64,000 nt of DNA from Phyllobates terribilis (lineage: Eukaryota), in NCBI RefSeq assembly GCF_046119375.1, contig NW_027362771.1:5022001-5086000 (forward strand), written 5' to 3'. The notes under the pieces are model-generated. The model saw nothing but the letters and a program-made list of their open reading frames with translations. It did no database searches and was not told the origin of the DNA. Positions 4,197 through 58,530 of the stretch are shown here, piece after piece; position 1 is the stretch's first letter, and each line of letters opens with the position of its first letter. The position numbers and the translations under genes were made by a program.

Positions 4197-4198
4197 GG

Positions 4199-12500: not shown

Positions 12501-13760
12501 ACGGTACTGGAACTCGGTTACTAAGCAGGAGGTACCTGTGCCAGAAAGCACTACCAAAGACCAGCAGACGTTGGTGGAACTTGGATACCGAGAAGGAGGC
12601 ACCTAATCCAAAGGCACTGCCGAGAACCAGCTGACGGTACTGGAACCCGGATGGGTAGTAGAAGGTATAAGAGCAAATGGAACTACTGAGAACCAGCTGG
12701 CGGTGCTGGAGCCCAGGGTAAATACTAAAAACAGAGTGGAGCCAGAGGTGTAATTGGAGCAAGTTTTAAATCAGTAGTACAGTGGATGTGGACAAAGCAG
12801 GAGAATTTGCCGGACACACAGCAGGGGAACAGCTGACGTTACTGAACCCCAATAACATGGCAGCAAGTGTTGACTGTGCAGACGGCACTTCCGAGCGCCA
12901 ACTGGCAGTGTTGGAGCTCAGGGATAATACTGAAAACAGAGGAGCCAGAGGTGTAATTGGAGCAACTTTAAAATCTGTAGTAGTGAGAATGTGGACAGAG
13001 CAGGAGAAATTGCCGTCCGCACAGCAGGAAAACAGCTGACGTTACTGAACCCCAATAACACGGCAGCAAGTGTTGACTGTGCAGACGGCACTTCCGAGCG
13101 CCAACTGGCGGTGTTGGAACTCAGGGATAATACTGAAAACAGAGGAGCCAGAGGTGTAATTGGAGCAACTTTAAAATCTGTAGTAGTGAGAATGTGGACA
13201 GAGAAGGAGAAATTGCCGTCCGCACAGCAGGGGAACAGCTGACGTTACTGAACCCCAATAACATGGCAGCAAGTGTTGACTGTGCAGACGGCACTTCCGA
13301 GCGCCAACTGGCGGTGTTGGAGCTCAGGGATAATACTGAAAACAGAGGAGCCAGAGGTGTATTTGGAGGAGGTTTTAAATCAGTAGTACAGTGGATGTGG
13401 ACAAAGCAGGAGAAATTGCCGTCCGCACAGCAGGGGAACAGCTGACGTTACCGGAACCCGGATGGGTAGTAGAATGTACAAGAGCCAATGGAACTGCCGA
13501 AGACCAGCTGACGGTACTGGAACTCAGTTCCTAAGCAGGAGGTACCTGTGCCAGAAAGCACTACCAAGGACCAGCAGACGTTGGTGGAACTTGGACACCG
13601 AGAAGGAGGCACCTAATCCAAAGGCACTGCCGAGAACCAGCTGATGGTACTGGAACCCGGATGGGTAGTAGAAGGTACAAGAGCAAATGGAACTACCGAG
13701 AACCAACTGGCGGTGCTGGAACCCAGGGTAAATACTAAAAACAGAGTGGAGCCAGAGGTG
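6600..13760. repeat. Hierarchical tandem array of 66/67-bp monomers with 531/597/796-bp and 1393-bp higher-order units
   Basis: Monomer GAACCAGCTGACGGTACTGGAACCCGGATGGGTAGCAGAAGGTACAAGAGCCAATGGAACTGCCGA. Near-identical ORFs recur at 6779/7376/8172/9565/10162/10693 and 7073/8466. Main block ends about 12700; a short block recurs at 13445-13700. Confidence 0.95.
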
Positions 13761-16700
13761 TAATTGGAGTAAGTTTTAAATCAGTAGTACAGTGGATGTG
13801 GACAAAGCAGGAGAATTTGCCGGACACACAGCAGGGGAACAGCTGACGTTACTGAACCCCAATAACACTGGAGCAAGCGTTGACTGTGCAGATGGCACTT
13901 CTGAGCAGCAACTAGCGGTATTGGAGCCCAGGGTAAATACTAAAAACAGAGGAGCCAGAGGTGTATTTGGAGGAGGTTTTAAATCAGTAGTACAGTGGAT
14001 GTGGACAAAGCAGGAGAAATTGCCGTCCGCACAGCAGGGAAACAGCTGACGTTACTGAACCCCAATAACACGGCAGCAAGTGTTGACTGTGCAGACAGCA
14101 GTTCCAAGCGCCAACTGGCAGTGTTGGAGCTCAGGGATAATACTGAAAACAGAGGAGCCAGAGGTGTATTTGGAGGAGGTTTTAAATCAGTAGTACAGTG
14201 GATGTGGACAAAGCAGGAGAAATTGCCGTCCGCACAGCAGGGGAACAGCTGACGTTACTGAACCCCAGTAACACGGCAGCAAGTGTTGACTGTGCAGACG
14301 GCACTTCCGAGCGCCAACTGGTGGTGTTGGAGCTCAGGGATAATACTGAAAACAGAGGAGCCAGAGGTGTAATTGGAGCAACTTTAAAATCTGTAGTAGT
14401 GAGAATGTGGACAGAGCAGGAGAAATTGCCGTCCGCACAGCAGGGGAACAGCTGACGTTACTGAACCCCAATAACATGGCAGCAAGTGTTGACTGTGCAG
14501 ACAGCACTTCCGAGTGCCAACTGGCGATGTTGGAGCTCAGGGATAATACTGAAAACAGAGGAGCCAGAGGTGTATTTGGAGGAGGCTTGAAATCAGTAGT
14601 ACAGTGGATGTGGACAGAGCAGGAGAAAGTGCCGTCCGCACAGCAGGGGAACAACTGACGTTACTGAACCCCAATAACACGGCAGCAAGTGTTGACTGTG
14701 CAGACGGCACTTCCGAGCGCCAACTGGCGGTGTTGGAGCTCAGGGATAATATTGAAAACAGAGGAGCCAGAGGTGTAATTGGAGCAACTTTAAAATCTGT
14801 AGTAGTGAGAATGTGGACAGAGCAGGAGAAATTGCCGTCCGCACAGCAGGGGAACAGCTGACGTTACTGAACCCCAATAACATGGCAGCAAGTGTTGACT
14901 GTGCAGACGGCACTTCCGAGCGCCAAATGGCGATGTTGGAGCTCAGGGATAATACTGAAAACAGAGGAGCCAGAGGTGTATTTGGAGGAGGTTTTAAATC
15001 AGTAGTACAGCGGATGTGGACAAAGCAGGAGAAATTGCCGTCCGCCCAGCAGGGGAACCGCTGATGTTACTGAACCCCAATAACACGGCAGCAAGTGTTG
15101 ACTGTGCAGACGGCAGTTCCAAGCGCCAACTGGCGGTGTTGGAGCTCAGGGATAATACTGAAAACAGAGGAGCCAGAGGTGTATTTGGAGGAGGTTTTAA
15201 ATCAGTAGTACAGTGGATGTGGACAGAGCAGGAGAAATTGCCGTCCACACAGCAGGGGAACAGCTGACGTTACTGAACCCCAATAACACGGCAGCAAGTG
15301 TTGACTGTGCAGACGGCACTTCCGAGCGCCAACTGGTGGTGTTGGAGCTCAGGGATAATACTGAAAACAGAGGAGCCAGAGGTGTAATTGGAGCAACTTT
15401 AAAATCTGTAGTAGTGAGAATGTGGACAGAGCAGGAGAAATTGCCGTCCGCACAGCACGGGAACAGCTGACGTTACTGAACCCCAATAACATGGCAGCAA
15501 GTGTTGACTGTGCAGACAGCACTTCCGAGCGCCAACTGGCGATGTTGGAGCTCAGGGATAATACTGAAAACAGAGGAGCCAGAGGTGTATTTGGAGGAGG
15601 CTTGAAATCAGTAGTACAGTGGATGTGGACAGAGCAGGAGAAAGTGCCGTCCGCACAGCAGGGGAACAACTGATGTTACTGAACCCCAATAACACGGCAG
15701 CAAGTGTTGACTGTGCAGACGGCACTTCCGAGCGCCAACTGGCGGTGTTGGAGCTCAGGGATAATATTGAAAACAGAGGAGCCAGAGGTGTAATTGGAGC
15801 AACTTTAAAATCTGTAGTAGTGAGAATGTGGACAGAGCAGGAGAAATTGCCGTCCGCACAGCAGGGGAACAGCTGACGTTACTGAACCCCAATAACATGG
15901 CAGCAAGTGTTGACTGTGCAGACGGCACTTCCGAGCGCCAACTGGCGGTGTTGTAGCTCAGGGATAATACTGAAAACAGAGGAGCCAGAGGTGTATTTGG
16001 AGGAGGCTTTAAATCAGTAGTACAGTGGATGTGGACAAAGCAGGAGAAATTGCCGTCCGCACAGCAGGGGAACAGCTGACGTTACTGAACCCCAATAACA
16101 CGGCAGCAAGTGTTGACTGTGCAGACGGCAGTTCCAAGCACCAACTGGCGGTGTTGGAGCTCAGGGATAATACTGAAAACAGAGGAGCCAGAGGTGTATT
16201 TGGAGGAGGTTTTAAATCAGTAGTACAGTGGATGTGGACAGAGCAGGAGAAATTGACGTCCGCACAGTAGGGGAACAGCTGACGTTACTGAACCCCAATA
16301 ACATGACAGCAAGTGTTGACTGTGCGGACGGCACTTCCGAACGCCAACTGGCGGTGTTGGAGCTCAGGGATAATACTGAAAACAGAGGAGCCAGAGGTGT
16401 AATTGGAGCAACTTTAAAATCTGTAGTAGTGAGAATGTGGACAGAGCAGGAGAAATTGCCGTCCGCACAGCAGGGGAACAGCTGACGTTACTGAACCCCA
16501 ATAACACGGCAGCAAGTGTTGACTGTGCAGACGGCAGTTCCAAGCACCAACTGGCGGTGTTGGAGCTCAGGGATAATACTGAAAACAGAGGAGCCAGAGG
16601 TGTATTTGGAGGAGGTTTTAAATCAGTAGTACAGTGGATGTGGACAGAGCAGGAGAAATTGACGTCCGCACAGCAGGGGAACAGCTGACGTTACTGAACC

Positions 16701-17590
16701 CCAATAACATGACAGCAAGTGTTGACTGTGCAGACGGCACTTCCGAACGCCAACTGGCGGTGTTGGAGCTCAGGGATAATACTGAAAACAGAGGAGCCAG
16801 AGGTGTAATTGGAGCAACTTTAAAATCTGTAGTAGTGAGAATGTGGACAGAGCAGGAGAAATTGCCGTCCGCACAGCAGGGGAACAGCTGACGTTACTGA
16901 ACCCCAATAACATGGCAGCAAGTGTTGACTGTGCAGACGGCACTTCTGAGCGCCAAATGGCGATGTTGGAGCTCAGGGATAATACTGAAAACAGAGGAGC
17001 CAGAGGTGTATTTGGAGGAGGTTTTAAATCAGTAGTACAGCGGATGTGGACAAAGCAGGAGAAATTGCCATCCGCACAGCAGGGGAACAGCTGATGTTAC
17101 TGAACCCCAATAACACGGCAGCAAGTGTTGACTGTGCAGACGGCAGTTCCAAGCGCCAACTGGCGGTGTTGGAGCTCAGGGATAATACTGAAAACAGAGG
17201 AGCCAGAGGTGTATTTGGAGGAGGTTTTAAATCAGTAGTACAGTGGATGTGGACAGAGCAGGAGAAATTGCCGTCCACACAGCAGGGGAACAGCTGACGT
17301 TACTGAACCCCAATAACATGGCAGCAAGTGTTGACTGTGCAGACGGCACTTCCGAGCGCCAACTGGCGGTGTTGGAGCTCAGGGATAATACTGAAAACAG
17401 AGGAGCCAGAGGTGTAATTGGAGCAACTTTAAAATCTGTAGTAGTGAGAATGTGGACAGAGCAGGAGAAATTGCCGTCCGCACAGCCGGGGAACAGCTGA
17501 CGTTACTGAACCCCAATGACACGGCAGCAAGTGTTGACTGTGCAGACGGCACTTCCGAGCGCCAACTGGCGGTTTTGGAGCTCAGGGATT
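12700..17590. repeat. 203-bp tandem array with two unit variants, often alternating (406-bp dimer)
   Basis: ORF starts recur every 203 bp (13792, 13995, 14198; 14407, 14813, 15016). Variants read GVIGATLKSVVVRM or GVFGGGFKSVVQWM. Confidence 0.95.
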
Positions 17591-17652
17591 ATAGTTCAGG
17601 TGGTAGAAACATGAACAGAACAGGAGACCTGTATACTTTTGCAAACAATTAT

Positions 17653-20600
17653 TTATTCTGGAAGAGGACTGGCAAATTCATGAGAGATCCAGGCCTTGTT
17701 CATTTTGAGAAAAGTAAGCCGGTCAACGTTATCGGAGGATAGTCACATGCGACGGTCTGTTAGTACACCACCTGCGGCACTAAAGACGCGTTCCGATAAT
17801 ACAGTAGCAGTAGGGCAAGCTAGCACCTCCAATGCATACTGACTTAGCTCTGGCCATGTATCTAGCTTACAGACCCAAAACTTGAAGGGAGAAGAGCCGT
17901 CTGGGAGTACACTAAGAGGGCAAGACAGTCACCATCTGACGGAAACGTTGCCTCCTGCTGACTGGAGCCGTCTGTGATGGTGTAGACATTTGTGGCGGCG
18001 GGGACACAAAACTTTGCCACATTTCGGCCATACTGGTCTTGACTTGTGCTGAGGCGCTGCTTCTGCTCCCTCTTTGTGCAGAGCTTCCTCCACTGCCTCG
18101 ACGCACTGAGCTGCTTTGTAAAGCACTAGCAGCACTGCTCTCGGTTGGAATGGAGAACATGATGGAATGCACCAGTGCGTCTTGGTACTCCCGCATTTTA
18201 CGCTCCCGGTTCAACGGTGTTATGAGGCTTTGTAAGTTGTCCCGGTAGCGAGGATCTAGGAGGGTGGACACCCAATAATCAGCCGTGTTGAGAATGTGGG
18301 CGATGCGGCGGTTGTTTCTCAGGCACTGCAGCATGAAATCAACCATGTGCTGCAGACTGCCAACTGGCCAAGAAACGCTGTCCCCTGCTTGAGGCGTGAT
18401 CTCTAGCTGCTCTGCATCACCCCACCCTCGCTCTAGATACTGACTACTAGAGCATTGTGTACCTCCCTCCTCTGGACAGATGTCTTCCTCATCCATTGAC
18501 TCCTCCTCATCCTCCTCACAAAGTGTCCCCTGCCTAGGCCTTTGTGAGGAACCACGTTGCGCAGACTGTAGAGAAGCAGATGGCATTTGTGACTCCTCAT
18601 CCTCCACCTCTTCCAAAACCTTGTCCCTTAGTGCTTGCAGTGTTTTTTCAAGCAGGCAGATAAGGGGGATAGTCATGCTGACTAGTGCATCATCTGCACT
18701 CGCCATCCGCGTGGAATAATCGAAGGCACGCAAAACGTGGCAAATGTCCTTCATAGAGGCCCACTCAGTGGTGGTGAAGTGTGAACGGCGCGCACTGCGA
18801 CTTGTTTGCGCCTGCTGCAGCTGGTACTCCATTACTGCCGCCTGCTGCTCACACAACCTCTCCAACATATGTAACGTTGAATTCCACCTGGTGGGTAGGT
18901 CACATATGATGCGATGTTCCGAAAGACGTAATCGGCGCTGCAGAGCTGCAATGCGTGATCTTGCATTGCTGGAACGCCGCAAGTGAGCGCACTCTATGCG
19001 GACCTTGTGAAGCAGTGCATCAAGATCCGGATAGTCCCTCAAAAAACTCTGCACGACCAAGTTGAGCACATGTGCCAGACATGGGATGTGAGTGAGGTTG
19101 CCTAGGCCCAGAGCTGCCACCAGATTTCGGCCATTGTCACACACTACCATGCCTGGCTGGAGATTCGCTGGCACAAACCACACGTCGCTCTGCTGCTTGA
19201 TGGCATTCCAGAGCTCCTGCGCTATGTGGCTTCGATTCCCCAAAGAAATAAATTTTAATACGGCCTGTTGACGTTTGGTCACGGCTGTGCTCATATTGGT
19301 CACCATAACAGGTTCACGGGTCGATGTGGAGGTAGACCGTAACGGCTCCTGCAGCGCTGATTCAGAGGAACTGGAGTATGAGGAGGAGTCAATGTGTACA
19401 GACTGGATTCCTGCAATCCTTGGAGTTGGCAGAACACATACAGCGCCACTCTCAAGATCTGTACCCGGCTCCACAACATTTACCCAATGGGCATTTTCCC
19501 AGTGAGGGAAAGGTATCCGTCCCTGTCCATGCTTACTGGTCCACGCATCGGTGGTCAGGTGGACCTTGCTACTGATGGCGTTTTGTAGCGCATTTTTAAT
19601 TTTTCCCTCCACATGATGTTGCAGGGCAGGGACGGCTTGCCTGCTGAAATAAAATCGGCTGGGCACGTTGTATTGTGGGACTGCCAATGCCATAAAGTTA
19701 CGGAATGTGTCAGTCTCCTCCAGCCTGAATGATAGCATTTCAAGGGCCAGTAATTTAGCAATGCCAGCATTCAGAGCCTGTGCTCGGGGGTGGTTTGCCG
19801 AGTATGGGCGCCTTTTCTCCCATGCCTGTGCTAACGATGGCTGTAGACTGGCCTGGGAGTGTGAGGATGATTGGGAAAGTGGTGCTGTGGGTGGAATTAC
19901 ACTGTGTCTCTGTACAACAGTGCCAGAGATTCTTCCATGGCGATCCTGTGAGGAAGCCGAACCAGCTGTGTGTGAGCTGGAGGAAGAGGCTACAACACGA
20001 GCTGAAGAGGTGGTAGGTGGCGCTGTAGGTTGGCCTAGGTCTGTTTTTGTAACTCCACCACGTGCTTGGTCCGCACATGTTTCCACATATTTGTGGTATT
20101 GAGGTTGCTGACACTTTTCCCTCTTTTCACCTTCTGATTACACAGCTTGCATTTGACAAAGCAAATGTCATCTGCAACTGTGTCAAAAAAGGACCAGGCA
20201 CTGCAAGTCTTGGGAGCACCCGCTTTGGATTTTGGAAGAGCCATGCTCCTATTGGGTGCCGAAGTGGAGGCTACAGGCAACCAAGTCTGCCCCCTCCCTC
20301 TCCCTCCTTTTTGGGCTGTTCGGGGAATCTCTTCCTCAGAGCTGCTCCCACCACCTTCCTGTCCCTCACGCCATGATGGGTCAAGGACCTCATCATCTAC
20401 ACCACCCTCTTCAAACAACTGCTTCTCCTGGGTAGTCTCGACAGCACAGTACGCACCAGAAAGTGGCACCTGAGTCTCATCATCAGATGCGTACTGAGGT
20501 GTGCTGCTGACCATAGGCACTGGCCCACCCGCCTCTTCAGATTCAGAGAGACAAAACAGTTGCGCATCACTGCATACTACCTCTTCTTCAAATTCTCGAA

Positions 20601-21027
20601 TTCTGCTTGGCTGGCCCCCTCTTTCCAAGCCAAGAGATTCAGAGAACAGAAGTAGAGATGGCTCCTGTCCAGGGCTCTCTGACTGCCTGGGCAATTTGGC
20701 AGGTGCTGAAGAGACAGATGGGTGCTCTTCAGTGCTCAGGACCTGAGAGGATCTGGAACTAATTGAAGTCGATGCATTAGCTGCCATCCATCCGACAACA
20801 GCTTCAATTTGGTCCTCCCGCAGCAGTGGGGTACGGCTAGCTCCTACAAAGCTGCGCATAAAGGACTGTTCCCTGGTAAAACTGGGGGATGCTGAGTCAC
20901 TGGTGCCCGCAGCAGGCACAGAATCCCCACGTCCTCTCCCTGCAGGCACAGAATCCTCACGTCCTCTCCCTGCAGAAACTCCACGCCCACGCCCACGACC
21001 ACATGCCTTACTCCCTGCCTTCTTCAT
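17653..21027 (-). pseudogene. hAT transposase with BED zinc finger, disrupted
   Basis: BED finger WSFF...CKLC...KHVRTKH (ORF 20035-21027). Core LTTDAWTS, CDNGRNL, CLAHVLNL, TRWNST, LDPRY (ORF 17912-20086). Dimerisation domain WPELSQYALEVLACP...SERVFSAAG in a shifted frame with a stop near 17745. Two frameshifts. Confidence 0.93.
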
Positions 21028-21388
21028 CTTGGCAGACTGATAAAGATAGGCAGAAAAGTACTAAGGGCTTAGTGTGCTTATTCCTGAACAGCTGCTAAGA
21101 GGTATAAGAAACACTAATTTTATAAAGTGTGGACTAGACTTTAATATGAGCTAATGTGGCCTACACAACTGTAAAGTGGAGTGTTTGGTGAACTTTATTT
21201 AGGTTTTTTTTGTCACAAAAAGACACTGGATGTGCCTAAAGATGTAATAACGATAGTATCACAAACTTTTTGTAGCTATTACAATGTAGGAAGGTAACCT
21301 ACAATGCAATAGATGAGGCTGCAAAAAATAGGCTAATACTAATCTGGCTGGGGCTGCAGGGCCCAATGCTGCAGAAAGGCTCCTCTAA

Positions 21389-23531: not shown

Positions 23532-25080
23532 CACTGCTCAAAAATATAAAGGAAACACTCAAATAACACATCTTAGATCTGAATGAATGAAATATTCCCA
23601 TTGAATACTTTGTTCTGTACAAAGTTGAATGTGCTGACAACAAAATCACGCAAAAATCATCAATGGAAATCAAATTTATTAACCAATGGAGGCCTGGATT
23701 TGGAGTCACCCCCAAAATTAAAGTGGAAAAACACACTACAGGTTGATCCAACTTTGTGTAATGTCCTCAAAACAAGTCAGAATGAGGCTCAGTATTGTGT
23801 GTGGCCTCCACGTGCCTGTATGACCTCCCTACAACGCCTGGGCATGCTCCTGATGAGGTTGCGGATGGTCTCATGTGGGATCTCCTCCCAGACCTGGACT
23901 AAAGCATCTGCCAGCTCCTGGACAGTCTGTGGTGCAACGTGACGGTGGATGGAGCGAGACGTGATGTCCCAGATGTGCTCAATTGGATTCAGGTCTGGGG
24001 AACGGGTGGGCCAGTCCATATCTTCAATGCCTTCATCTTGCAGGAACTGCTGACACACTCCAGCCACGTGAGGTCTGGCATTGTCCTGCATTAGGAGGAA
24101 CCCAGGGCCAACCGCACCAGCATATGGTCTCACAAGGGGTCTGAGAATCTCATCTCGGTACCTAATGGCAGTCAGGCTACCTTTGGCGAGCACATGGAGG
24201 GCTGTGCAGCCCTCCAAAGAAATGCCACCCCACACCATTATTGACCCACTGCCCAACCGGTCATTCTGAAGGGTGATGCATGCAGCAGATCGCTCTTCAC
24301 AGCATCTCCAGACTCTGTCACGTTTGTCACATGTGTTCAGTGTGAACCTGCTTTCATCTGTGAAGAGCACAGGGCACGAGTGGCGACTTTGCCAATCCTG
24401 GTTTCTGTGGCAAATGCCAAGCGTCCTGCACGGTGTTGGGCTGTGAGCACAACCCCCATCTGTGGATGTTGGGCCCTCATACCACCGTCACGGAGTCGAC
24501 TTCTAACCGTTTGTGCAAACACATGCATATTTGTGGCCTGCTGGAGGTTATTTTGCAGGGCTCTGGCAGTGCTTCTCCTGTTCCTCTTTGCACAAAGACG
24601 GAGGTAGCAGTCTTGCTGCTGGGTTTTTGACCTCCTACGGCCCCCTCCACATCTCCTGGTGTACTGGCCTGTCTCCTGGTAGCGCCTCCAGCCTCTGGAC
24701 ACTACGCTGACAGACACAGCAAACCTTCTTGCCACAGCTGACATTGATGTGCCATCCTGGATGAGCTGCACTACCTGAGCAACTTCTGTGGATTGTAGAG
24801 TCCGTCTCATGCTACCACGAGTGTGAAAGCACAACCAACATTCAAAAGTGACCAAAACATCAGCCAGAAAGCATTGGTACTGAGATGTGGTCTGTGGTCC
24901 CCACCTGCAGAACCACTCCTTTATTGAGTGTGTCTTGATAATTGCCAATAATTTCCATCCATTGTCTATTCCATTTGCACAACAGCATGTGAAATTGATT
25001 GTCAGTGTTGCTTCCTAAGAGGACAGTTTGATTTCACAGAAGTTTGATCTACTTGGAGTTATATTCTGTTGTTTAAGTGT
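23532..25080 (-). mobile_element. Tc1 element, one TIR missing (cut by CR1)
   Basis: TA then CACTGCTCAAAAA TIR at 23532; transposase on the minus strand. Confidence 0.88.
23789..24810 (-). pseudogene. Tc1 DD34E transposase, one frameshift near 24375
   Basis: [20 protein letters not shown] (HTH), then [25 protein letters not shown]. Confidence 0.92.
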
Positions 25081-29524: not shown

Positions 29525-29953
29525 TACATTTTTTCCATTAAAAAATAGTTTTAGCCCAAGATTTTCCATTTTCAAATGGGGAAATGGGGAAAAATTTCAC
29601 CAAAATGTGTCACACAATTTCTGCTGAACGTGGCAATACCCCATATGTGTATGTCCAGTACTGCTTAGCCACAAGACGAGACTCGGGAGGGACGAAGTGC
29701 TATTTCACTCTTGGAGAACAACTTATTGTAGAATAGTTTGCAGATTCCACATACAGAGCTCCTTAGAGACAGAAGAGCAGGATCCTCCCTCAAGTGACAC
29801 CATTTTGGAAATACATCCCTCTGGGAATTTATCTACAGGTGTAGTGACTATTTTGGTTCGATGGGTGTTTTCCAGAAACAAGCAGCAATGCATGCTGCTG
29901 AGTGAAAATTTGCAAATCTGCCATTGTAGTGCCCAGTACATTGTAGTGCCCAT

Positions 29954-30395
29954 TGTGGTAAGACGCCTCACTCGGCCACTTCCGTATGACTCAGGAATCA
30001 TGTTTTCTGTGCAGGCTTTATTTTGTGGTATAAAGCCCTGCAGCTCCAGCAAAAATAAGCACAGCCTTACTGGCAAAACAGGTTGTAGTCCCAGCTTTCA
30101 GCTCCTCTCTGAGCTGTGGCCTTCCAGGCTGGAGTCTTAGACACTCCAAACTCAACAACAGAGAAAGAAAAACAGGACTGAACATTTAAACGTTGCTCAG
30201 CCACACCCTGAGGGGGAGGTATAGGGAATGGCATCCCTCTAATCTCTGTCATTGCTATAAAACCACGCCCTTTAAAAGAGTTAACCCCCAGCATATAACA
30301 TGCCCGCAGAAAGTTTATTGGTTCTAGTTCACACAGGCTACCAACCTGCGGGTCACATACCTCCCTTCATATACCATACCAGTGACTCTGTCACA
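29954..30395 (-). repeat. 3' LTR of the Gmr1 element
   Basis: Aligns with 39560-40154 apart from indels; follows the GGGGGGAATA tract. Confidence 0.88.
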
Positions 30396-31560
30396 TATTC
30401 CCCCCCTCTGCACAAAGCCGGGGGTTTGGGCACCTTCCAATACAAGACAGGGAATTCTAGACAGGGCATCAGCATTCTCGTGTAACTTCCCGGGCCTATG
30501 CTCTACGTGACAGTTGAAGTCCTGAATTGCTAGGAACCATCTAGTTACCCTGACATTTTTACCCCTCTTTTCCCTCAACTATCTCAACGGGGCATGGTCT
30601 GACACCAACTTAAACTTCCAGCCTAGTAGGTAGTATCTTAGTGTATCTACGGCCCACTTTATGGCTAAACACTCTTTTTCTACTATTGCGTAGTTTTTCT
30701 CGCAGGAGGACAGCTTCCGGCTCAGATAGAGTATGAGATGTTTTTCCTCATTTATCTCTTGAGAGAGTACGGCTCCTAGACCAACCTCTGAAGCTTCTGT
30801 CTGGACCACAAATTCTTAAAGTTTGATGCGACCAGGACCGTCTGTTTACACCGTGTTGACTTCAACAGTTGAAACGCGGTCTTTGTTTCCTCCGTCCTCT
30901 TCACCATGGTTGACCTGGTGCCTTTTAGGAGATCCGTCAGTGGCGCGGCCATCATGGCAAAATTTGGGATAAACCACCGGTAATATCCCATCATTCCCAG
31001 GAATGCTCTCACTTGCTTCTTGGAGAGCGGTTGGGGCCAGGTCTGGATTGCCTCCACTTTAATCACTTGCGGTTTTATTTCGCCTCTCCCGACGACATAG
31101 CCCAAGTAATTGGCCTCCTCTTTTCCAACGGTGCATTTTTCGGATTTATTGTAAATCTTGCTGTGCTTAGAGCATCCAGAACGGCCTGTAGTTTAGGTAG
31201 CTGGTGTAACATACCTGGCGGCGTCCTTGCATGGTGGTCCATCTCCCACTGTGCAAGAGAGCGCACTTGATCTCCTGTCCAGAATGTCTCTCTGGCTTCC
31301 CTCCATGCTGTCTGTTTGTGTCTGTCTCTGCTGCTTAAGGGCGGCGCCCGATCACTTCCTGCTTTTTGTACCTGCTGTGGGTCACACCCCTTGTGCGTCC
31401 TCAGCCTATCGCTGTCTGTCTCTTGGTATATAGCTCAGCAGCTCCCTTCTATCCCTGCCTGTGCATATGTGTTTCTTTCAGTGTGTGCTTGCACTCTGAA
31501 GGTGCCAGGTCCCGTCCTGTTTCCCTGTCCGCCCTTCCTGGAGGCTGTATTTCCAGGCCT

Positions 31561-31870
31561 GTCTGAACTAAGTCCTGTATGTCTCCTGCCTTGCGGTGTC
31601 AGCTCCCGTGTCTGAACTGTGTCCTGTATGTCTCCTGCCTTGCGGTGTCAGCTCCCGTGTCTGAACTGTGTCCTGTATGTCTCCTGCTTTTTGGTATTAG
31701 TTCCCGTGTCTGAACTAGTCCTGTATGTCTCCTGCTTTACGGTATTAGTTCCCGTGTCTGAACTAAGTCCTGTATTTCTCCTGCCTTGCGGTGTCAGCTC
31801 CCGTGTCTGAACTGTGTCCTGTATGTCTCCTGCTTTACGGTATTAGTTCCCGAGTCTGAACTGAGTCCTT
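31561..31870. repeat. 49-bp tandem repeat inside the LTR (copy at 34758-35067)
   Basis: GTCTGAACT at 31561, 31610, 31659, 31708, 31756, 31805, 31854. Confidence 0.9.
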
Positions 31871-32650
31871 TCTGTGTTCTCTAGTCTGCCCTGTCTGAAC
31901 ACGCTCCTTGCCTGTTCGTTCCGCCTCTCTGGGGGCAGTATTCCCAGACCCGCTCCTGTATCCTGCTGCAGTGTCGGTCTCCTCCGTACACTCAGTTCCG
32001 GTCTGAACTCTCTCCTATCCTTTACCTGTTTTGCCTTTATGCCCGTTCCCTTCCTGTCTGTTCAGTGTGAACAGAGCCCTTTCCTCCCTGCTCCGTCTTC
32101 TGCACTCTAGTTGTGCTTGCCTGTACCCCTCTGCCTGTATTGTTCCGGAATCCCGGTGTGTACTGGGTCCTATCCCGTCTGTGTTCCTACTTGCTAGTGC
32201 CTCCCTGTCTGCACTCTATCTGTGCTTACCTTTACCCGCCTGCCTGCATACCCGCCTGCCTGCATACCAGTCTGTTCCTGTATTCCCCTGTGTGGGTCAA
32301 CAGCCGTGTCCGGGGTCTGTCCTGGAGTAGCACCTGGTCCCTCTGCTCGGTTCCTCCTTGGTGCTCTGGCGTCGTATGCCGTCGTGCCACCTTGGTCGGA
32401 TCGGGTAGATACTTAGTTACGCCCCTCCAGGCATTCACTCTCCGGCACGGTCCAGTGGAATCACTACCAATCACACGCACACGCCGCTTAGCCCGGGCGT
32501 GTGCATAACAGCATGCTCAGGCCATGGTTCCCGTTGAGCCCCACGGCCTTCGCCCTCTGAGAAGTTTTCCAGCGGATATATGCATTAAAATAAATAAATA
32601 AATTTTTTTTTCCTTTAGCTGAGTTCCAGGCGAATTACGCACCCGTCCAG

Positions 32651-34630
32651 ATGGATCTATCAGCCCTCGTTCCTGCGGATCCGCCACGTTACTATGGGGA
32701 TCCAAGACAGTGTCGTGCATTTGTGGAGCAATGCATGCTACACTTTAAGGCCTACCCTCTCTATTTTCCTTCCGATTGGCCTAAAGTGTCCTTTATGATT
32801 GACTACCTAGCGGGTGATGCCTTGAAATGGGTCACCCCCCTATGAGAAGCATGGGATCCTGTCATCCTTGACCTGCAGGCCTTCCTGGTGGCCTTTCGTA
32901 TGGTCTTCGAGGACCCTAACTCTGAAGCCCCTGCTGAAGCTTCACTTCCCAATATCCCGGAGCAGCCCCGTCAGGTAATGTGTGTGGGTAGCGCAATAGT
33001 TCTCCAGCCCAATGAGACTACGGCCCACCCAGAATCCTCACAGGGTGACTACGCTTTCCGGAATACTTCTCCCAACCTCAAGAGGCAGTCCAGACGTGCT
33101 AGACTTAGAGGCAAGCAGTCACGCCAGGGTCTGTCCTCCCTGAGACCTCCTGAACCCTTCGGGGTGCTACCTGGTAGCGAAAGGACAGAGACTCTCCTAT
33201 ACTCTGTACCTGATACCTCGCTCGCTTCGTCCAGTGACTCCAACCTAGTGTACTCCGAAGCAGAGGTTACTCCCGAGTCTCTACACCCCTCCGACCAGGC
33301 GGAGGACCTCCAGTTGTGTTCAGAACCCTTCGGGGTGCCACCTGGTGGTGAATGGACAGAGACTTTCCTATATCCTGGACCTGATACCTCGCTCGCTTCG
33401 TCCAGTGAGTCCAACCTAGTGTACTCCGAAGCAGAGGTTACTCCCGAGTCTCTACACCCCTCCGACCAGGCGGAGGACCTCCAGTTGTGTTCTGAACCCT
33501 TCGGGGTGCCACCTGGTGGTGAATGGACAGAGACTTTCCTATATCCTGGATCTGATACCTCACTCGCTTCGTCCAGTGAGTCCAACCTAGTGTACTCCGA
33601 AGCAGAGATTACTCCCGAGTCTCTACACCCCTCCGACCAGGCGGAGGACCTCCAGTTGTGTTCAGAACCCTTCGGGGTGCCACCTGGTGGTGAATGGACA
33701 GAGACTTTCCTATACTCGGTACCCGATACCTCGCCTGCTTCCTCCAGTGAGTCCAACCTAGTGTACTCCGAAGCAGAGGTTACTCCCGAGTCTCTACACC
33801 CCTCCGACCAGGCGGAGGACCTCCAGTTGTGTTTAGAACCCTTCGGGGTGCCACCTGGTGGTGAATGGACAGAGACTTTCCTATACTCGGTACCCGATAC
33901 CTCGCCTGCTTCCTCCAGTGAGTCCGACCTAGTGTTCTCCGAAGCAGAAGTTACTCCCGAGTCTCTACACCCCTCCGACCAGGCGGAGGACCTCCAGTTG
34001 TGTTTAGAACCCTTCGGGGTGCCACCTGGTGGTGAATGGACAGAGACTTTCCTATTTCCTGTACCTGATACCTCGCCTGCTTCCTCCAGTGAGTCCGACC
34101 CAGTGTACTCTGAAGCAGATGTTTTCTCTGAGCCTCAGTACTCTTCTGACCCGGCGGAGGACCTCCAGTTGTTTCCTGAATCCTCCGGGGTACCACCAGA
34201 TAACAAAGAGACAGTGACTTTTCCTCATTATGTACCTGATAACCCGTCTATTTCTTCCTGTGAGCTTGACAAGATGTACCTCGAAGCAGAGATTACCCTC
34301 AAGTCTCTGTCCCCCTCCAACCCAGTGAACGACTGGTCCTCGAATTCCCTGCGGAAGATTCTGGCAGGCCTGAAGAAGAGGGGGCGTAAGGGGGGAGGTA
34401 CTGTAACATACCTGGCGGCGTCCTTGCATGGTGGTCCATCTCCCACTGTGCAAGAGAGCGCACTTGATCTCCTGTCCAGAATGTCTCTCTGGCTTCCCTC
34501 CATGCTGTCTGTTTGTGTCTGTCTCTGCTGCTTAAGGGCGGCGCCCGATCACTTCCTGCTTTTTGTACCTGCTGTGGGTCACACCCCTTGTGCGTCCTCA
34601 GCCTATCGCTGTCTGTCTCTTGGTATATAG
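32651..34630 (+). pseudogene. gag: Ty3/Gypsy capsid-like gag fragment in frame with a 57-aa acidic repeat ORF; one TGA at 32843-45
   Basis: PPRYYGDPRQCRAFVEQCMLHF...KVSFMIDYLAGDALKWVTPL*EAWDP...FLVAFRMVFEDP resembles sushi/PEG10-type capsid. ORFs 32651-32845 and 32888-34630 share a frame. Confidence 0.75.
33148..34300 (+). repeat. 171-bp (57-codon) tandem repeat, about 6.5-7 copies
   Basis: CCGACCAGG at 33291 and 33462, and so on. Unit PSDQAEDLQLCSEPFGVPPGGEWTETFLYPGPDTSLASSSESNLVYSEAEVTPESLH. Confidence 0.95.
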
Positions 34631-36859
34631 CTCAGCAGCTCCCTTCTATCCCTGCCTGTGCATATGTGTTTCTTTCAGTGTGTGCTTGCACTCTGAAGGT
34701 GCCAGGTCCCGTCCTGTTTCCCTGTCCGCCCTTCCTGGAGGCTGTATTTCCAGGCCTGTCTGAACTAAGTCCTGTATGTCTCCTGCCTTGCGGTGTCAGC
34801 TCCCGTGTCTGAACTGTGTCCTGTATGTCTCCTGCCTTGCGGTGTCAGCTCCCGTGTCTGAACTGTGTCCTGTATGTCTCCTGCTTTTTGGTATTAGTTC
34901 CCGTGTCTGAACTAGTCCTGTATGTCTCCTGCTTTACGGTATTAGTTCCCGTGTCTGAACTAAGTCCTGTATTTCTCCTGCCTTGCGGTGTCAGCTCCCG
35001 TGTCTGAACTGTGTCCTGTATGTCTCCTGCTTTACGGTATTAGTTCCCGAGTCTGAACTGAGTCCTTTCTGTGTTCTCTAGTCTGCCCTGTCTGAACACG
35101 CTCCTTGCCTGTTCGTTCCGCCTCTCTGGGGGCAGTATTCCCAGACCCGCTCCTGTATCCTGCTGCAGTGTCGGTCTCCTCCGTACACTCAGTTCCGGTC
35201 TGAACTCTCTCCTATCCTTTACCTGTTTTGCCTTTATGCCCGTTCCCTTCCTGTCTGTTCAGTGTGAACAGAGCCCTTTCCTCCCTGCTCCGTCGTCTGC
35301 ACTCTAGTTGTGCTTGCCTGTACCCCTCTGCCTGTATTGTTCCTGAATCCCGGTGTGTACTGGGTCCTATCCCGTCTGTGTTCCTACTTGCTAGTGCCTC
35401 CCTGTCTGCACTCTATCTGTGCTTACCTTTACCCGCCTGCCTGCATACCCGCCTGCCTGCATACCAGTCTGTTCCTGTATTCCCCTGTGTGGGTCAACAG
35501 CCGTGTCCGGGGTCTGTCCTGGAGTAGCACCTGGTCCCTCTGCTCGGTTCCTCCTTGGTGCTCTGGCGTCGTATGCCGTCGTGCCACCTTGGTCGGATCG
35601 GGTAGATACTTAGTTACGCCCCTCCATGCATTCACTCTCCGGCACGGTCCAGTGGAATCACTACCAATCACACGCACACGCCGCTTAGCCCGGGCGTGTG
35701 CATAACAGCTGGCTAGCCCAGTCTGGGCTAAAAACGACAATGTCGTCAAGGTAGGCTGCGGCATACTTCTTATGTGGGGCTAGGATCCAATCCATAGCGC
35801 TCTGGAAGGTGGCTGGGACCCCCTGTAGCCCGAACGGCATCCGAGTGTATTGAAATCACCCATCCAGTGTCTAGAAAGCAGTCTTCTCCTTGGCCGTCTG
35901 GAACATGGGGATCTGCCAATAGCCCTTCGTCAGGTCGAGAGTGGTGATGTATCTCACCGGTCCAAGCCTCTTGATGAGTTCATCAATGCGGGGCATCGGG
36001 TATGCGTCACACTTGGACACCTCATTCAGCCGGCGGTAGTCATTACAAAACCTCCACTCTCCATTGGGCTTTGGCACGAGGACGATTGGGTTCGACCACC
36101 CACTCTTTGACTCCTCTATCACACCGAGGTCTAACATCCTCTTCATCTCGGCCGAGATCACCTCCCGGCGTCCTTCCACAATCCAATAAAGCTTCAGATT
36201 CACTCTTACATTTGTTTCTGTTAGTACTTCATGCTCTACCACCTGAGTATGCCCCGGCAACTCTGAGAACAGCTCCCGATTCTGCTGTAGTAGTTCTCGA
36301 CATTGTTGCTTCTGGGCTGGCGATAGTCTCTGCTATAGTGACCTCTTCCACCTTGCCTTCGGGAGTGGCTCCCAGGCAAGGAGTTTCCACAGGCTCCAAG
36401 TCCCACCACGGCTTGAGCAAGTTCACATGGTATACTTGGTGCGGCTTTCTTCGACCAGGCTGGTGGACTCGATAGCTCACTTCACTGAGTTTCTCCACCA
36501 CCCTCATACGGGCCTTGTCACTTGCCCAGGAGCTTAATTTCGACAGTGGGATTGAGAACCAGAAAGCGATCCCCAGGCTGGAACTGTCTCAGCCTTGCCA
36601 ACCGGTTATACACCCTTGCCTGGGCTTCCTGCCCCCAGAGTAGATGTTCCTTCACGATGGGCATCATTTTCGCCATTCTCTCCTGTAACTGGGCGACATG
36701 TTCGACAATGCTCTGGTGGGGAGTGACCTCGGCCTCCCAGGTTTCCTTGGTGATGTCTACGAGACCCCTTGGATGTCGACCATATATAAGCTCGAACGGA
36801 GAGAAGCCAGTGGAGCATCGCTTTTAGGGGCTTATTGAATTGCTCCACCAGGCCATTGG

Positions 36860-37293
36860 TGTTAGAACCCTCCTGTTAGTTTTTGCTATCTATTGTTTTG
36901 CGGTCATGTGACCATCTGCCTATATATTCCAGCTCCGCCCTTCTGGCTTTGCTGGATTTCAATGTTGTTTGACTGTCTCTCTAGCCAGGTGCTTCGGTGC
37001 CTATCTCTGTCTAGTTTGCTTGGTCCTCTGGGACCTCTATTACTTTTCGTCAGTTTGTCTTTTGTGCTCTGCAACAACTTCTGTTTAGGAGGTGTCCCAT
37101 TTTTTTCCCAGTCCTTAGTTCTTTTAGGGACCCCTCCCTTAATTCTATAGGTCTTCGTTCAGACTAGCCGAGGACAAAGGCTGGTCTTTTCACAAGGAAA
37201 AGGCAGCCCGCTACATCGTAGGGATTCAGCTTAGTCTTACTGTAGGGACAGCTTTCCTCTATCTTTCCTTAGTTTATGTTGCAGATCATAACA
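36860..37293. mobile_element. Solo LTR inserted in the Gmr1 integrase
   Basis: TGTTAG...ATAACA with 5-bp TSD ATTGG (36855-59, 37294-98). Integrase reads ...HPQTN on one side and LVEQFN on the other. Confidence 0.9.
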
Positions 37294-39539
37294 ATTGGTC
37301 TGCGGATGGTAAACGAAGGTTTGCAGCTGGGTAATCTGAAGCACTTTACACAGCGTCTTCATCACCTTGTTCATGAATGGGATTCCTTGGTCCGTCAGGA
37401 TTTCCTTCGGCAGGCCGGTCCTGGCAAAGATGTGGACAAGCTCCTGAGCTATGCTTCTACTGGACGAGTTCCTTAAGGGTACCGCTTTGAGGCTCCAGGT
37501 CGCATAGTCCATGACGACCAACATGTATTGATGGCCCGGGCTGATTTAACTAAGGGACCCACGAGGTCCATGTCAATCCTCTCGAAGGGAACTTCTATCA
37601 CAGGTAGTGGAACTAAGGGACTACGGAAGTGGGAGGTGGGTGCAGTTATCTGGCAGGTGGGGCAGTACCTACAATAATTTAAGATCTCCTGGTAACATCC
37701 TGGCCAATAAAACCTCACTATTCGCTCCTGAGGTTTTTCAACCCCTAGGTGTCCTCCCAGAATATGGCCATTCCAGGTATGGCCCTGGAATGAACAGCTG
37801 TTCCACTACCTTTTCACCTTTCAGTTTGGTTACCCGGTATAACAGGTCCCCCTGAACTGCAAAGTATGGGTACCTGGTGTCCGTCTCCGGCTCTTGGGCA
37901 ACACCATTACAAACCATAACATTGTCCCACGCCCCTTTCAAGATCAAGTCCCAAACTTGAGCTGCCCCAAAGTTCTCTCCGGGCACCTCTAACTCAGGGC
38001 GGTCAGCCTCCTCAGTCACAGTCTTGTCCTCATCACTGACAAGGACACACAGTGGAAACCCATCCACTTCCAATGTCGACTGGGGTATTTCTCTAGGGTC
38101 CTGGCTTTTATCCACGTGACTGAGTCTGGATCCCTTCCCCCACAAATCCCAGAACAAGGGAAATTGCGCCCCTATATGATGGGATGTATCAGGTCCTTTA
38201 CCACCCCAACCTCGTGGGATTGGGCGCCACCGTCTGTCCAACTGTCACTCTGGCCACCGGGAAGTTATTGGCATCCCCATGTATGCAGCGGATGCCCACA
38301 GATCTGGCGGGGAGCAGCTTGTGGGCAAGGGTGGCACTGATCAAGGTCACCAGACTCCCGGAGTCCAACAGCCCCAGGACCATCACTCCATTAATGGACA
38401 CTGCATACAACTGTGGCCCCTGTCGGGTTGACAGTCCACACTGCAGGCTGGGTAAGCATAGTATGAACATCGTCTGCCTAGGCTGCAGTCCATTGGCTTA
38501 GCAGACTTATGACACTGGGCGGCTATGTGTCCCGGACTGCAACATCACCAATAGATCACATCCTTCACAACAGACCTTGCAGCCCCTTCAGTGGAAGTGG
38601 AATGCCCCCCAGTTGTGGCTCTGAACCCCTTCCGTGGTGGACCCACCCCCTTTTGGGCACTCCAGTAAGGAGATGTGGCGTTGTCGGGTTTCCCCAGGGA
38701 TTTTTCGACCACTTGGTATCTCTCTACCACACCTACTAGGTTGTCTGTGTTCCAAGGGTCGCCCTGGGCAACCCAGGTCTGCACCGGCCTGGGTAGGGAC
38801 TAGATGAACCTGTCCATCACCACACGCTCAACCACCTGGGCAGGAGAGGAAGACTCTGGCTACTGCCATTTCTGTACAAGGTGTAACAAGTCAAACATCT
38901 GTGAGCGTGGAGGTCTGTCGCCAGCATTCGCCCGGTGGTGGACCCTTTGTGCTCTGACAGACATAGTCACTCCTGAGCTTGCCAATATTTTGGTTTTTAA
39001 TTCGGCGTATTCCTTTGCGTCCTGTAAAGTCAGATCATAATAAGCCTACTGCAGTCAAATATGGCGCCAGAACCTCCGCCCACTGCTCCAGCGTCAATTT
39101 CTCCCTTTCCGCCACCCTCTCAAAAACAGCCAGGAACGCCTAACATCATCCCCCAGGGTCATCTTCTGTAACGCTCTCCTTACCGTCTTCATGACGTATG
39201 CATTATCACCCAGACTTGTCAGAGCCGTCGCCTTGCCACAGATTGCCTCTGCAAGTAACTCGATCTGCTGTTGTTGTTGGCGATGCTGATCCTGTTGCTG
39301 TTTCTAGAGCTGAACCTGTTGTGTCAGCAGCTTAGTGGTCTCGTTGCTGCTGTAGCTGCTCATGGTGCTGCTGCTGCATGCTCTGATAGCTCTGCAAGTG
39401 CTGTTGCTGCATGCTCTGCTGGCTCTGCACCAGGTGCTTAATTAGCTCTACCATGCTGCTGGACGTCTTCTGCTGGCTGGCAGCCTTCACCCAAGACATC
39501 CATCGGTCTCTGTAGCAGGTACACGTGTTCCTGGAATCT

Positions 39540-39557
39540 TGCCCGCATTCTCCACCA
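39540..39557 (-). other. Primer-binding site complementary to the tRNA-Ala(AGC) 3' end
   Basis: Minus strand TGGTGGAGAATGCGGGCA, 2 nt after the LTR end. The plus strand TGCCCGCATTCTCCACCA matches my recollection of the vertebrate tRNA-Ala 3' terminus. Confidence 0.8.
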
Positions 39558-39559
39558 AC

Positions 39560-40154
39560 TGTGGTAAGACGCCTCACTCTGCCGCTTCCGGCCGGAACCG
39601 TTTTTTCTCTGCAGGCTGTATTTCGTGGCATAAAGCCCTGTAGCTCCAGCAAAAATAAACACAGCCTTACTGGCAAAACAACAAAACAAAAGATAAACGA
39701 TAGCACAGTCCATAGCAGTGTGGGATTAACCACACAGGTTGTAGACCCAGCTTTCAGCTCCTCTCTGAGCTGTTGCCTTTCAGTCTGGAGTCTTTGCCAC
39801 TCCAAACTCAACAACAGAGAAAAAAAAAAAAAAACAGGACTGAACATTTAAACTTTGCTCAGCCACACCTTGAGATCTGGAGAGCGATGGATTGTAGATC
39901 AATTATGTTCATTAGAACGTAGGTTTCTTGCTTTTCTCATAATGGATTCCTTTAACCCCTTAACTACTCACAATTGACATATCCATGACGTCCCTCCCAT
40001 CTCTATGTCATGCGCATAAAACCACACCCTTTAAAAGAGTTAACCCTCAGCATATAACATGCTGGCAGAAAGTTTATTGGTTCTAGTTCACACAGGCTAG
40101 CAACCTGCATAACACATACCTCTCCTCATATACCATACCAGTGACTTTATCACA
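39560..40154 (-). repeat. 5' LTR of the Gmr1 element
   Basis: TGTGATA...CTTACCACA on the minus strand, followed by the PBS. Confidence 0.88.
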
Positions 40155-46789: not shown

Positions 46790-48040
46790 TTTGTGTAAAT
46801 AAAATGGAGACCAAATGTCTCATTGAGGTTCTGTGTCTGGAGATGTGCGGATCTCCAGAGTGTTGGTCTGTGTTGGGACTTAAGGACTGGACACTAATCT
46901 GACCGGGCGAACCCGCAACGTTGTATGGACATTTTACTTTGTGTTTCCACTTTGTGCCGGGAAAGCCTGTTTTTGTTTTGCTTCCTGAGTGGTTTATGTT
47001 GTTTAATAAGCCAGCCTGGATTTCATTGAAAACGCTTCTGTGCCTACCTCAACTGAAGCCAATTTAGTACCAAACCCTACAATTGGTGCTAGAAGCACAG
47101 GCACGAATCCCAAGGGGCAGTGTGACTGCTACAGAAAACCATATATGTCCTGGTTGAAGGCCGCCAGCCAGCAAGGGACGTCCATCAGCATAAAGGAGCT
47201 GATAAAGCGGCTGGTGCAGACTAACCTCCAGCAGCATCAATGGCAGCAGTGGCAACAGCTGATGCAGCAATTGCAGCACAAGCAGGAGATGGAGCTCCTG
47301 GCCAAGGTGATCCGTGGCAGGGCAACCGCCCCACCCACAACCCCAGGTGCTGACTCTCACGTGAGGAAAACATTAAGGAGAGCATTACAAAAGATGACCT
47401 CGGGTGATGACATCGAGGCGTTACTAACTGTCTTTGAAAGGGCGGCAGAGTGGGAGAAATTACCTCCGGAGAAGTGGGTGGAGGTTTTGGCACCATATTT
47501 AATAGGTGAGCCGCAGAAAGCCTACTATGACTTGGCCTTGCAGGATGCAAAAGAGTACGCCAAATTTAAAAATGGAAATCTTGGCACACTTAGGAGTTAC
47601 TCTGACTGTCAGGGCGCAACGGGTGCACCACTGGGCCTATTGCAGTGACAAACCTCCCTGGTTCCAAATGTTCGACCTCCTACACCTGGTCCAAAAGTGG
47701 TTGCAACCTGAGTCCTCCTCCCCAGCGCAGATGGTGGAAAGGGTCGTCATGGACAGGTTCATACATTCTCTGTCGAGGTCAGTGCAAGCCTGGGTGGCCC
47801 AGGGAGATCCCCGTAATGCCGATGACCTGGTGGGGCTGGTGGACAGGTACCAGGCAGTAGAGAGTTCCTTGGGGAAGCCAGGGGTCGTAGTGTCTTCATA
47901 CTGAGGGGAACTAGAGCCACGTCTGAGGGGCATCCTAAAGCACAGGAGGGGTCTGAGTTGCTGCCAAAGGTCCCACCCAATAGAATGTATGTTGGAGATG
48001 TCACACCCCAGGTCACATAGCCGCCTGTTGTTCCATGACC
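46790..48040 (+). mobile_element. gag: Truncated Gmr1 copy: partial LTR, degenerate PBS, SCAN-like gag
   Basis: LTR ends CCTACA at 47081, then ATTGGTG. ATG at 47145: MSWLKAASQQ...LQKMTSGDDIEALLTVFERAA...QMFDLLHLVQKWLQPE. Homologous to 38500-39499. Left boundary approximate. Confidence 0.82.
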
Positions 48041-54884: not shown

Positions 54885-55423
54885 ACACAGTCGCTCTGGA
54901 TCAGACAGTGTAGGGTCAGTGCTGCTGAGTTAGGGAGAAATATATAGTGCGAAATAGGTAGTGTAGGGTCTCTGAAGCCTGCCAAATCAAACAAACAATC
55001 CTTCTCAGGACTAATATCCATCCCAGATGGCAGGCAGGCTGTATAGGAGACGCAGTGGTTATACCAACAAACACTGCATTACAGTCCTGTGTGCTCCTGC
55101 TGGTCAAACTGCTCGACTTATCCCCAGGTCTCAGGGGCCAGAAAAAAATTCTTTATTTTTTCATCTAAATCCTGTTTTGTTTTGTTTTTTCCTCAGTCAG
55201 ACTGTACAAATACACGTCTTATTAACCTTTTGGTATTTCCCCCCCCCCCCAAAAAAAAAACAGTGTGTCTGTGAGTGTTCAGACACAAATATATCTGTTT
55301 AAAAGAGTCTGGTGTAGGCCAGATAACTAGAGCTGTGTTTTTCCTCTTCCACGGTTCTAATCTCCATTTTATTACCCTTTTGCCATCGATAGTGTGAGTG
55401 TAAGCTATTTTACGTCATTTACA

Positions 55424-58100: not shown

Positions 58101-58306
58101 AAAGTCAAATCCACTGTGTTATTTTGGGAGGTGTATTCCCATGCACCGCTTCACACCCACATATGGGTATACGCTTCCTCATTTCGGCTGTTTTTTGCTC
58201 TTCTCCTTATCCTCAGCCTCCACCACCACTATACCACCAGGGTGACCGTAGTCCATGCTGCCAGCATTGCAAGTTTCTCTGTCCCAATTTTTGGCAGCTT
58301 TTGATT

Positions 58307-58530
58307 GGAAGGCATAGGCAAAGACTATGGGAGACCCACTCTCCCATAATGGGAATAATGTTTTTAATATGCTGTAGTGCATGGCTCTTGTACGGGGCAT
58401 TGCAAATTCCTTCGTCCTAATTTTTGGAAGTTTTTGCCTGGAAGGCATAGGCAAAGACTATGGGAGACCCACTCCCCCATAATGGGAATAATGATTTTAA
58501 CATGCTGTACTGCATGACTCTTGTAAGGGG
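58307..58530. repeat. 133-bp direct duplication before the satellite
   Basis: GGAAGGCATAGGCAAAGACTATGGGAGACCC at 58307 and 58440. Confidence 0.85.

Follow-up and report, generated by a model that had tools for sequence, protein, structure and literature searches.

Non-autonomous long terminal repeat (LTR) retrotransposons are usually viewed as non-coding passengers and, to our knowledge, experimental demonstration that such an element can capture helper particles through a protein of its own is so far limited to one mouse endogenous retrovirus (ERV) subtype. The closest described system is IAP 1Δ1, for which a 2008 paper by Saito et al. is reportedly the primary source. In this very active IAP an internal deletion joins gag in frame to the end of pol, and passages of two papers describe that the gag-pol fusion promotes retrotransposition in cis while Gag and Pol are needed in trans (PMC6466679, PMC7411935), with a similar suggestion of a cis effect in a section of a third (PMC10924933). 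The TR-GAGs of plants are likewise presented, in the part of PMC8704663 that concerns them, as elements with two LTRs and one gag open reading frame (ORF), without pol and transposed in trans. RTL8 and LDOC1-type genes carry a sushi-type capsid N-terminal lobe (N-lobe) without the C-terminal lobe (C-lobe), and RTL8, which is N-lobe only, is reported in sections of two papers to bind the N-lobe of PEG10 and to enter PEG10 particles (PMC11684626, PMC10516033). Here we describe an element at positions 31205 to 35707 of a 64,000-nucleotide stretch of the Phyllobates terribilis genome (contig NW_027362771.1, positions 5,022,001 to 5,086,000 of the forward strand), the whole of which is called the window below. 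The element belongs to a large, young, pol-less family whose copies keep a single open frame encoding a capsid N-lobe, and our best reading, drawn by analogy, is that the family would work like IAP 1Δ1 but with RTL8-like anatomy.

The element is an LTR retrotransposon that has transposed recently, with two LTRs, a primer-binding site (PBS), a polypurine tract (PPT), a 5-bp target-site duplication (TSD) and many insertion sites. The exact PPT-LTR junction occurs 3,140 times in the 10.6-Gb genome, against 0 matches for a control with the pattern reversed, and the LTR-start pattern occurs 21,093 times, making the family, with at least 21,093 LTRs, a visible share of the genome. The first 100 LTR starts listed, counted by eye, comprised 27 pairs and 46 singles, and four of five single LTR starts retrieved were solo LTRs with TSDs. 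Copies were sampled as a nearest set (39 best matches, 8 of them dropped as the same insertion site seen again), an unselected set (the first 40 junction matches on contig C1, 39 parsed) and a set with a variant PBS (20 of 70 matches retrieved, 17 parsed). Every parsed copy in the three sets has two LTRs and lacks pol, and room or ORFs for pol were found in 0/39 unselected, 0/39 nearest and 0/12 second-subfamily copies. In the unselected set the LTR pairs mismatch at 62 of 57,714 nt (0.11%), the TSD is perfect in 36/39 and the frame is open in 36/39. An earlier note, made from the window sequence alone, had called the element young, mobile, non-autonomous and sushi-type, which these counts bear out; that it might be a single copy is excluded by the number of copies with TSDs.

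In this family, 83 of 88 distinct copies carry a single open frame that starts at an ATG, passes through the N-lobe, a linker and three to eight repeat units, and reaches the final ~18 codons of an ancestral pol; the pol-derived codons overlap the PPT, and the frame then enters U3. The length from ATG to PPT varies from 1.2 to 2.4 kb, and the net length keeps the frame in 86/88 copies, a measure used instead of a per-event count of ORF indels (21/35), which suffers from alignments that split within the array. Among shared indel classes outside the frame, multiples of three make up 2/18 in the leader and 2/26 at the LTR 3' end. In a second subfamily, with longer LTRs, the frame is kept in all 12 parsed copies (15 retrieved) and stop-free in 9, and in a third, with ~69% LTR identity, it is open over the available stretch in 19/20 loci. 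An older sister family (3,898 candidates; LTR pairs 77-96% alike) shares the start, the N-lobe, the linker and the pol tail with the young family, has two repeat units only and an unrelated middle of ~270 codons, and is fully open in 2 of 10 parsed copies (20 retrieved). At least four subfamilies, with LTRs down to 69% alike, thus keep the frame while repeat number and filler vary, and the lineage is old although its present wave is young. The earlier note described a gag-acidic-repeat fusion; because the older sister family has two units and a different middle, the array is a recent, variable and exchangeable in-frame expansion outside the conserved core.

The copy in the window is laid out as follows.

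31200-31204, plus strand: 5' TSD, GCTGG
31205-32510, plus strand: 5' LTR, 1306 bp, containing a 49-bp tandem array (31560-31869)
31427-31433, plus strand: TATA-like box, likely promoter; its spacing to the self-primer is fixed in 83/87 copies
31457-31466, plus strand: predicted RNA 5' end and self-primer, complementary to the PBS (9/10 bases here; 10/10 in 66/87 copies)
32513-32522, plus strand: PBS of the self-priming type
32524-32650, plus strand: leader, an out-of-frame relic of the ancestral gag start, freely variable in length
32651-32917, plus strand: capsid N-lobe (DUF4939), 89 codons counted from ATG 32651, interrupted here
32843-32845, plus strand: in-frame stop codon private to this copy (1/88)
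32918-33151, plus strand: linker with a basic RRARLRGK patch, amino-acid evolution near-neutral
33152-34322, plus strand: acidic Ser/Glu/Pro repeat array, 171-nt (57-aa) unit, six units and a degenerate one
34349-34401, plus strand: relic C-terminal pol tail (end of the chromodomain region), overlapping the PPT at 34388-34398
34402-35707, plus strand: 3' LTR; the frame continues into U3 and stops at 34630 within the TATA-like box
35708-35712, plus strand: 3' TSD, GCTGG

The LTRs begin with TG and end with CA, a purine tract stands immediately before the 3' LTR, and the two LTRs differ at exactly three sites (32098, 32147 and 32430, all G/T; 0.23%), which places the copy in the same young wave as the unselected set. 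They account for 2612 of 4503 nt (58%), leaving an interior of 1891 nt, and no ORF for protease (PR), reverse transcriptase (RT) or integrase (IN) is found inside the element. In all this, from the 1306-bp LTRs, their three differences and their share of the element to the TSD, the PPT and the lack of pol, the description in the earlier note was reproduced. Its count of about seven 57-aa repeats becomes 6.1 copies of a 171-nt period at 93% (33152-34197), that is, six units, plus a degenerate seventh; the repeat peptide has 68 D+E and 1 K+R over 342 aa. The capsid-like gag piece it noticed does match DUF4939 in the window fragment (E=2e-4) and is restricted to the capsid N-lobe. The fusion of gag with the repeats, open in 83/88 copies, is closed in this one: the frame from ATG 32651 ends after 64 codons at the stop at 32843-32845, and for this reason the window copy cannot make the fusion and is an ordinary broken member of its family. 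Its subfamily lacks an 89-codon segment carried by the majority form. The 3' half of its N-lobe (32800-32917, compared with loci L073 and L232) is nearer to the old sister family than to the majority young form, which suggests recombination between subfamilies. A long minus-strand frame at 33049-34134 was considered and taken as a by-product, as it is open in only 34/41 shared units. The read-through into U3 was likewise dismissed as a selected feature, frameshifts being common there and the A-poor LTR having long frames anyway.

Two further observations concern the copies themselves. One insertion (TSD ATACT, identical flanks) was met at 8 places on different contigs (L046-L048, L051-L053, L058, L064), where it carries 6 or 7 units of the repeat and its LTRs mismatch at 0-2 sites; it has been amplified inside a larger repeat, and its repeat number was altered after insertion. 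Head-to-tail tandem copies with shared LTRs, at ~3.4-kb spacing, are found at L109 and at G000:C1 151500821-151507648, 173377068-173380488 and 207647647-207651077.

How the open frame has been maintained can be approached through the comparison of young and old copies. On a neutral account only the LTR, PBS and PPT would matter, and a few masters would have spread fast from an open ancestor; the copies are indeed so young (0.11% LTR divergence) that the openness of any one of them says little, and the test of fixed against private changes is not significant. It is difficult to reconcile, however, with an old-young synonymous divergence (dS) of 0.28-0.39 in the N-lobe and 0.23-0.27 in the linker without a fixed stop, with 0/41 shared repeat units carrying a stop where 4.0-5.8 are expected, or with the many large rearrangements that preserve the frame when the indels of leader and LTR do not. 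Of 176 private changes 7 create a stop, against none of the 246 steps at lineage level, whether shared or fixed (p=0.002). The neutral account is already largely refuted, and we consider it improbable; the random breakage of ORFs that the earlier note had named as a possible outcome did not occur, the frame being mostly open and the N-lobe ratio of nonsynonymous to synonymous divergence (dN/dS) lying below 1.

Constraint at the amino-acid level is confined to a smaller region. Between 88 young and 20 old copies the net dN/dS of the N-lobe is 0.27 (95% interval 0.13-0.53) or 0.35 (0.18-0.69), depending on kappa, and that of the linker 0.59-0.72 with intervals that include 1; in the summed variant counts the ratio of nonsynonymous to synonymous variants (N/S) is lower in the N-lobe (107/79) than in the linker (93/33; p=0.004). 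We read these values as pointing to strong selection against stops everywhere and moderate amino-acid constraint on the N-lobe only. The first part of this pattern could be produced by translation alone: ribosomes reaching near the 3' end would avert nonsense-mediated decay or route the RNA to helper Gag, and the protein would be largely irrelevant. The near-neutral sequence after the N-lobe, in which stops are nonetheless never fixed, the exchange of the middle between families and the extension of the frame to the PPT, and usually into U3, in all four subfamilies would all be expected under such a scheme. It leaves unexplained why N/S is lower in the N-lobe than in the linker, why N-lobe dN/dS is ~0.3 and why capsid core residues are kept; an RNA signal within the N-lobe would constrain synonymous sites and so raise dN/dS, not lower it. 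As an explanation it has a minority chance in our estimation, and a translational effect may act together with a function of the N-lobe in cis.

The nature of the conserved domain has been approached from profiles, alignment and structure. In the predicted 634-aa product of the family, Pfam recognizes DUF4939 only (E=1.6e-7) and gives no match to Retrotrans_gag, Ty3_capsid or zf-CCHC; an autonomous relative has DUF4939, Retrotrans_gag, Ty3_capsid, a zinc knuckle and a complete, chromodomain-bearing pol. The alignment to autonomous Gags takes in the N-lobe, where 19 columns are invariant, and stops at the hinge between N-lobe and C-lobe. The predicted N-lobe structure (pLDDT 86.7) finds its best matches, at Z 7-9, in the capsids of dArc1 (Z 9.1), Ty3 (N-terminal domain, Z 7.3, rmsd 2.4 over 74 residues), Copia and PNMA2, middling values that do not separate N- from C-lobe; it is because of the sequence alignment that we assign the domain to the N-lobe of the capsid. 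Searches of protein collections with the full ORF and with residues 1-170, among proteins of 348-1110 residues only, gave no match at E<=0.001, a Foldseek search with the predicted structure gave none at the same threshold, and a sequence search of the PDB returned Ty3 Gag alone, at E=0.85.

Two autonomous families stand closest to the element, and both carry a chromodomain (Chromo). The first, here called family B, is active at present: 150 of 150 scored matches are identical over the chromodomain query, many frames measure 1150-1200 aa, and in 10 retrieved copies the LTR pairs are 98.9-100% alike, with pol open in 10 and gag in 9. Its capsid is 49-51% identical to that of the element, the 47-nt pol tail and PPT match at 81-83%, the PBS-leader region is homologous, and the element's leader corresponds to the gag start of family B. 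The second is an older, decayed family (16 loci, LTR pairs 74-91%) that shares a 116-nt U5 block at 69-77%. Over ~47 nt the relic pol tail matches the pol end of autonomous relatives at 81-90%. In a tree of N-lobes the element lineages form one clade (99/98) beside family B and the older autonomous family (91/98), apart from other DUF4939 families, with bootstrap support that is not fully settled. The grouping of its DUF4939/Ty3-capsid Gag with chromodomain-bearing elements indicates that the element derives from the Tf1/sushi chromovirus lineage. The autonomous partner sharing its LTR that the earlier note had anticipated did not appear among the matches listed for PBS variants, LTR-start pairs and a PPT variant; what these searches yielded were solo LTRs, relatives that are themselves non-autonomous and a single decayed autonomous copy (L111). 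Family B, as an active sushi-like chromovirus, is the likely helper. Other active DUF4939 families (one with a 1499-aa gag-pol and others; 20 loci) are 35-40% identical in amino acids and have no LTR in common with the element. One of them, at L130-L137 and L149, is a young autonomous chromovirus that encodes gag-pol as one frame of 1499 aa and has LTRs of ~800 bp. Its self-primer is similar to that of the element, and it is a possible second helper.

The Tf1/sushi elements known from yeasts and vertebrates are described as self-priming (PMC6317226), and the present element appears to be primed in this way. The ten bases after the 5' LTR are complementary to a site 29-30 nt past the TATA-like box, perfectly in 66/87 copies and with one mismatch in 17, and compensatory changes are seen at the same place in the old family and in family B. 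A rare PBS variant accompanies the matching LTR variant (10/17 vs 7/68, p=6e-5; related copies, not independent). An AATAAA-type signal is present in none of 71 family LTRs, and the R/U5 border is therefore unplaced; a cluster of AATAAA motifs lies in the leader, at ~32589-32602. Contigs from four runs span the element and its flanks; they were set aside as evidence of expression, as their RNA origin is not established. Insertion polymorphism is not claimed either, as contig joints across the site may derive from other copies of the host element into which the insertion was made.

Taking these lines together, we think it rather probable that the N-lobe of the family acts in cis, linking the RNA that encodes it to Gag made by a related autonomous helper. 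The transcript started at the LTR TATA box would prime itself, its first ~10 nt pairing with the PBS. Translation from the ATG at 32651 would yield the N-lobe, a disordered acidic spacer and the pol tail, a product that, lacking C-lobe, zinc knuckle and enzymes, should be unable to build particles. The nascent N-lobe would join helper capsid N-lobes and carry its RNA to assembling particles, the repeats serving presumably as an exchangeable in-frame disordered spacer. RT and IN of a helper then copy and insert the element with a 5-bp TSD, as is established for the class, the helper here presumably being family B. If the ORF is selected along transposing lineages, then its product or the act of translating it would have to help the same RNA, and since constraint is concentrated on the N-lobe, a hook in cis is the simplest model.

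Several observations weigh against such a hook. The LTR of family B cannot be aligned to that of the element, and the element N-lobe, only ~50% identical to that of the candidate helper, has a long branch in the tree (0.46 vs 0.20), i.e., it is relaxed. Young copies compared among themselves give an N-lobe dN/dS of 0.61-0.80, with 1 inside the intervals, repeat paralogues range from 0.4 to 1.6, and a McDonald-Kreitman-type test of fixed against private N-lobe changes gives p=0.08 (0.23 without CpG codons), which is not significant. The variants counted are not all independent, since subfamilies recombine, and the frame in U3 is shifted in several copies and hence dispensable. RTL8 lowers the yield of PEG10 particles, which for a parasite would be a cost unless incorporation were sparse. 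A predicted complex of the family B capsid with the element N-lobe scored 0.47 against 0.37 for a control and counts neither way.

The earlier note had offered co-assembly with helper particles or interference with them. On the second option the N-lobe fusion would poison helper particles, as RTL8 does to PEG10 and Ty1 p22 to Ty1, and would be kept by host benefit or by competition between elements; the anatomy is indeed like that described for RTL8 in part of PMC11684626, and a capsid lobe with so bulky an acidic tail could obstruct assembly. The constraint, however, shows in lineages that transpose, across thousands of young copies at scattered sites, and not at one locus that has become fixed; the element and its candidate helper are both in a burst at present, and a parasite poisoning its sole vehicle should lose out to broken variants. 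Interference seems to us the least probable of the explanations, very unlikely indeed, and co-assembly the better of the two options because selection in lineages that transpose means that the benefit arises in cis, the binding itself being what the model would predict.

The cis hook invites comparison with the known systems. The family resembles IAP 1Δ1 in the in-frame fusion of gag to the end of pol that is kept open; IAP, as passages on it indicate, is a betaretrovirus-like ERV in which 1Δ1 is a simple deletion near its helper, whereas here a derivative of a Ty3/gypsy chromovirus keeps the N-lobe only, combines it with foreign filler and repeats, differs by ~50% from every candidate helper found and persists through at least four subfamilies. 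TR-GAGs, in the part of PMC8704663 that defines them, encode a full-length Gag, in contrast to this vertebrate family without C-lobe or zinc knuckle. With Tf1/sushi (V-clade) chromoviruses, as far as the corresponding sections of PMC6317226 describe them, and with family B, it has in common a self-priming PBS, a 5-bp TSD, a DUF4939 capsid, a PPT inside the pol tail, read-through into U3 and a repeat-rich LTR; unlike them it is devoid of PR, RT, RNase H (RH), IN and chromodomain, has lost the gag coiled-coil, C-lobe and nucleocapsid, and uses a new start codon. LDOC1 has an acidic tail. RTL8 and LDOC1 are portrayed, in the sections devoted to them, as single fixed host genes, free of LTRs, that antagonise PEG10, whereas the present family is mobile, numbers thousands of copies and is only moderately constrained, and orthology is not claimed. 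A domesticated RTL/Mart gene was rejected as an identity for the element, given the thousands of LTR-flanked young copies and the stop in the window copy. No account of the family was among the papers listed by a search of the freely accessible literature.

That at least four subfamilies, numbering thousands of copies, keep half a capsid under measurable selection points to protein-based capture of helper particles. It is conceivable, though we hold it with some doubt, that the family represents a long-lived vertebrate lineage of capsid-hook parasites, its Gag pared down to one N-lobe, that switches helpers as autonomous families rise and die, and that such parasites are the selfish mobile counterparts of N-lobe-only genes like RTL8 and a plausible stepping stone to them. 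With parasite and candidate helper active in one genome, natural material is at hand for testing both the hook in cis and the way in which N-lobe-only genes arose.

The element was inserted into the RT of a decayed minus-strand Gypsy element, directly after its YLDD motif. Two parts of this host are recognized next to the insertion.

35713-36332, minus strand: host Gypsy RT, N-terminal part, with YLDD just before the insertion; decayed, order PR-IN-RT-RH
30582-31199, minus strand: host Gypsy, remaining RT and RNase H

Its order of domains is what we take to be the Gmr1 type. The host extends over ~29700-31199 and 35713-39850 with many stops and frameshifts, the similar sequences at 29726-30097 and 39335-39847 may be its LTRs, and an inverted relative lies at 47010-47879. 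Elsewhere in the window, stacked tandem arrays of 197, 66/133/265 and 203 bp occupy 4198-17593 and include an acidic low-complexity minus-strand frame at 6105-6578. Remnants of hAT-type transposases (zf-BED, hAT dimerisation) and a Tc1-type transposase in two frames are found at 17912-21060 and 23789-25014 on the minus strand and at 55361-58245 on the plus strand. A 52-bp satellite fills 58518-63998 with ~105 units at 90% match and a 104-bp higher-order period, and satellite-related sequence also adjoins some insertions of the family (L234, L245, L069).

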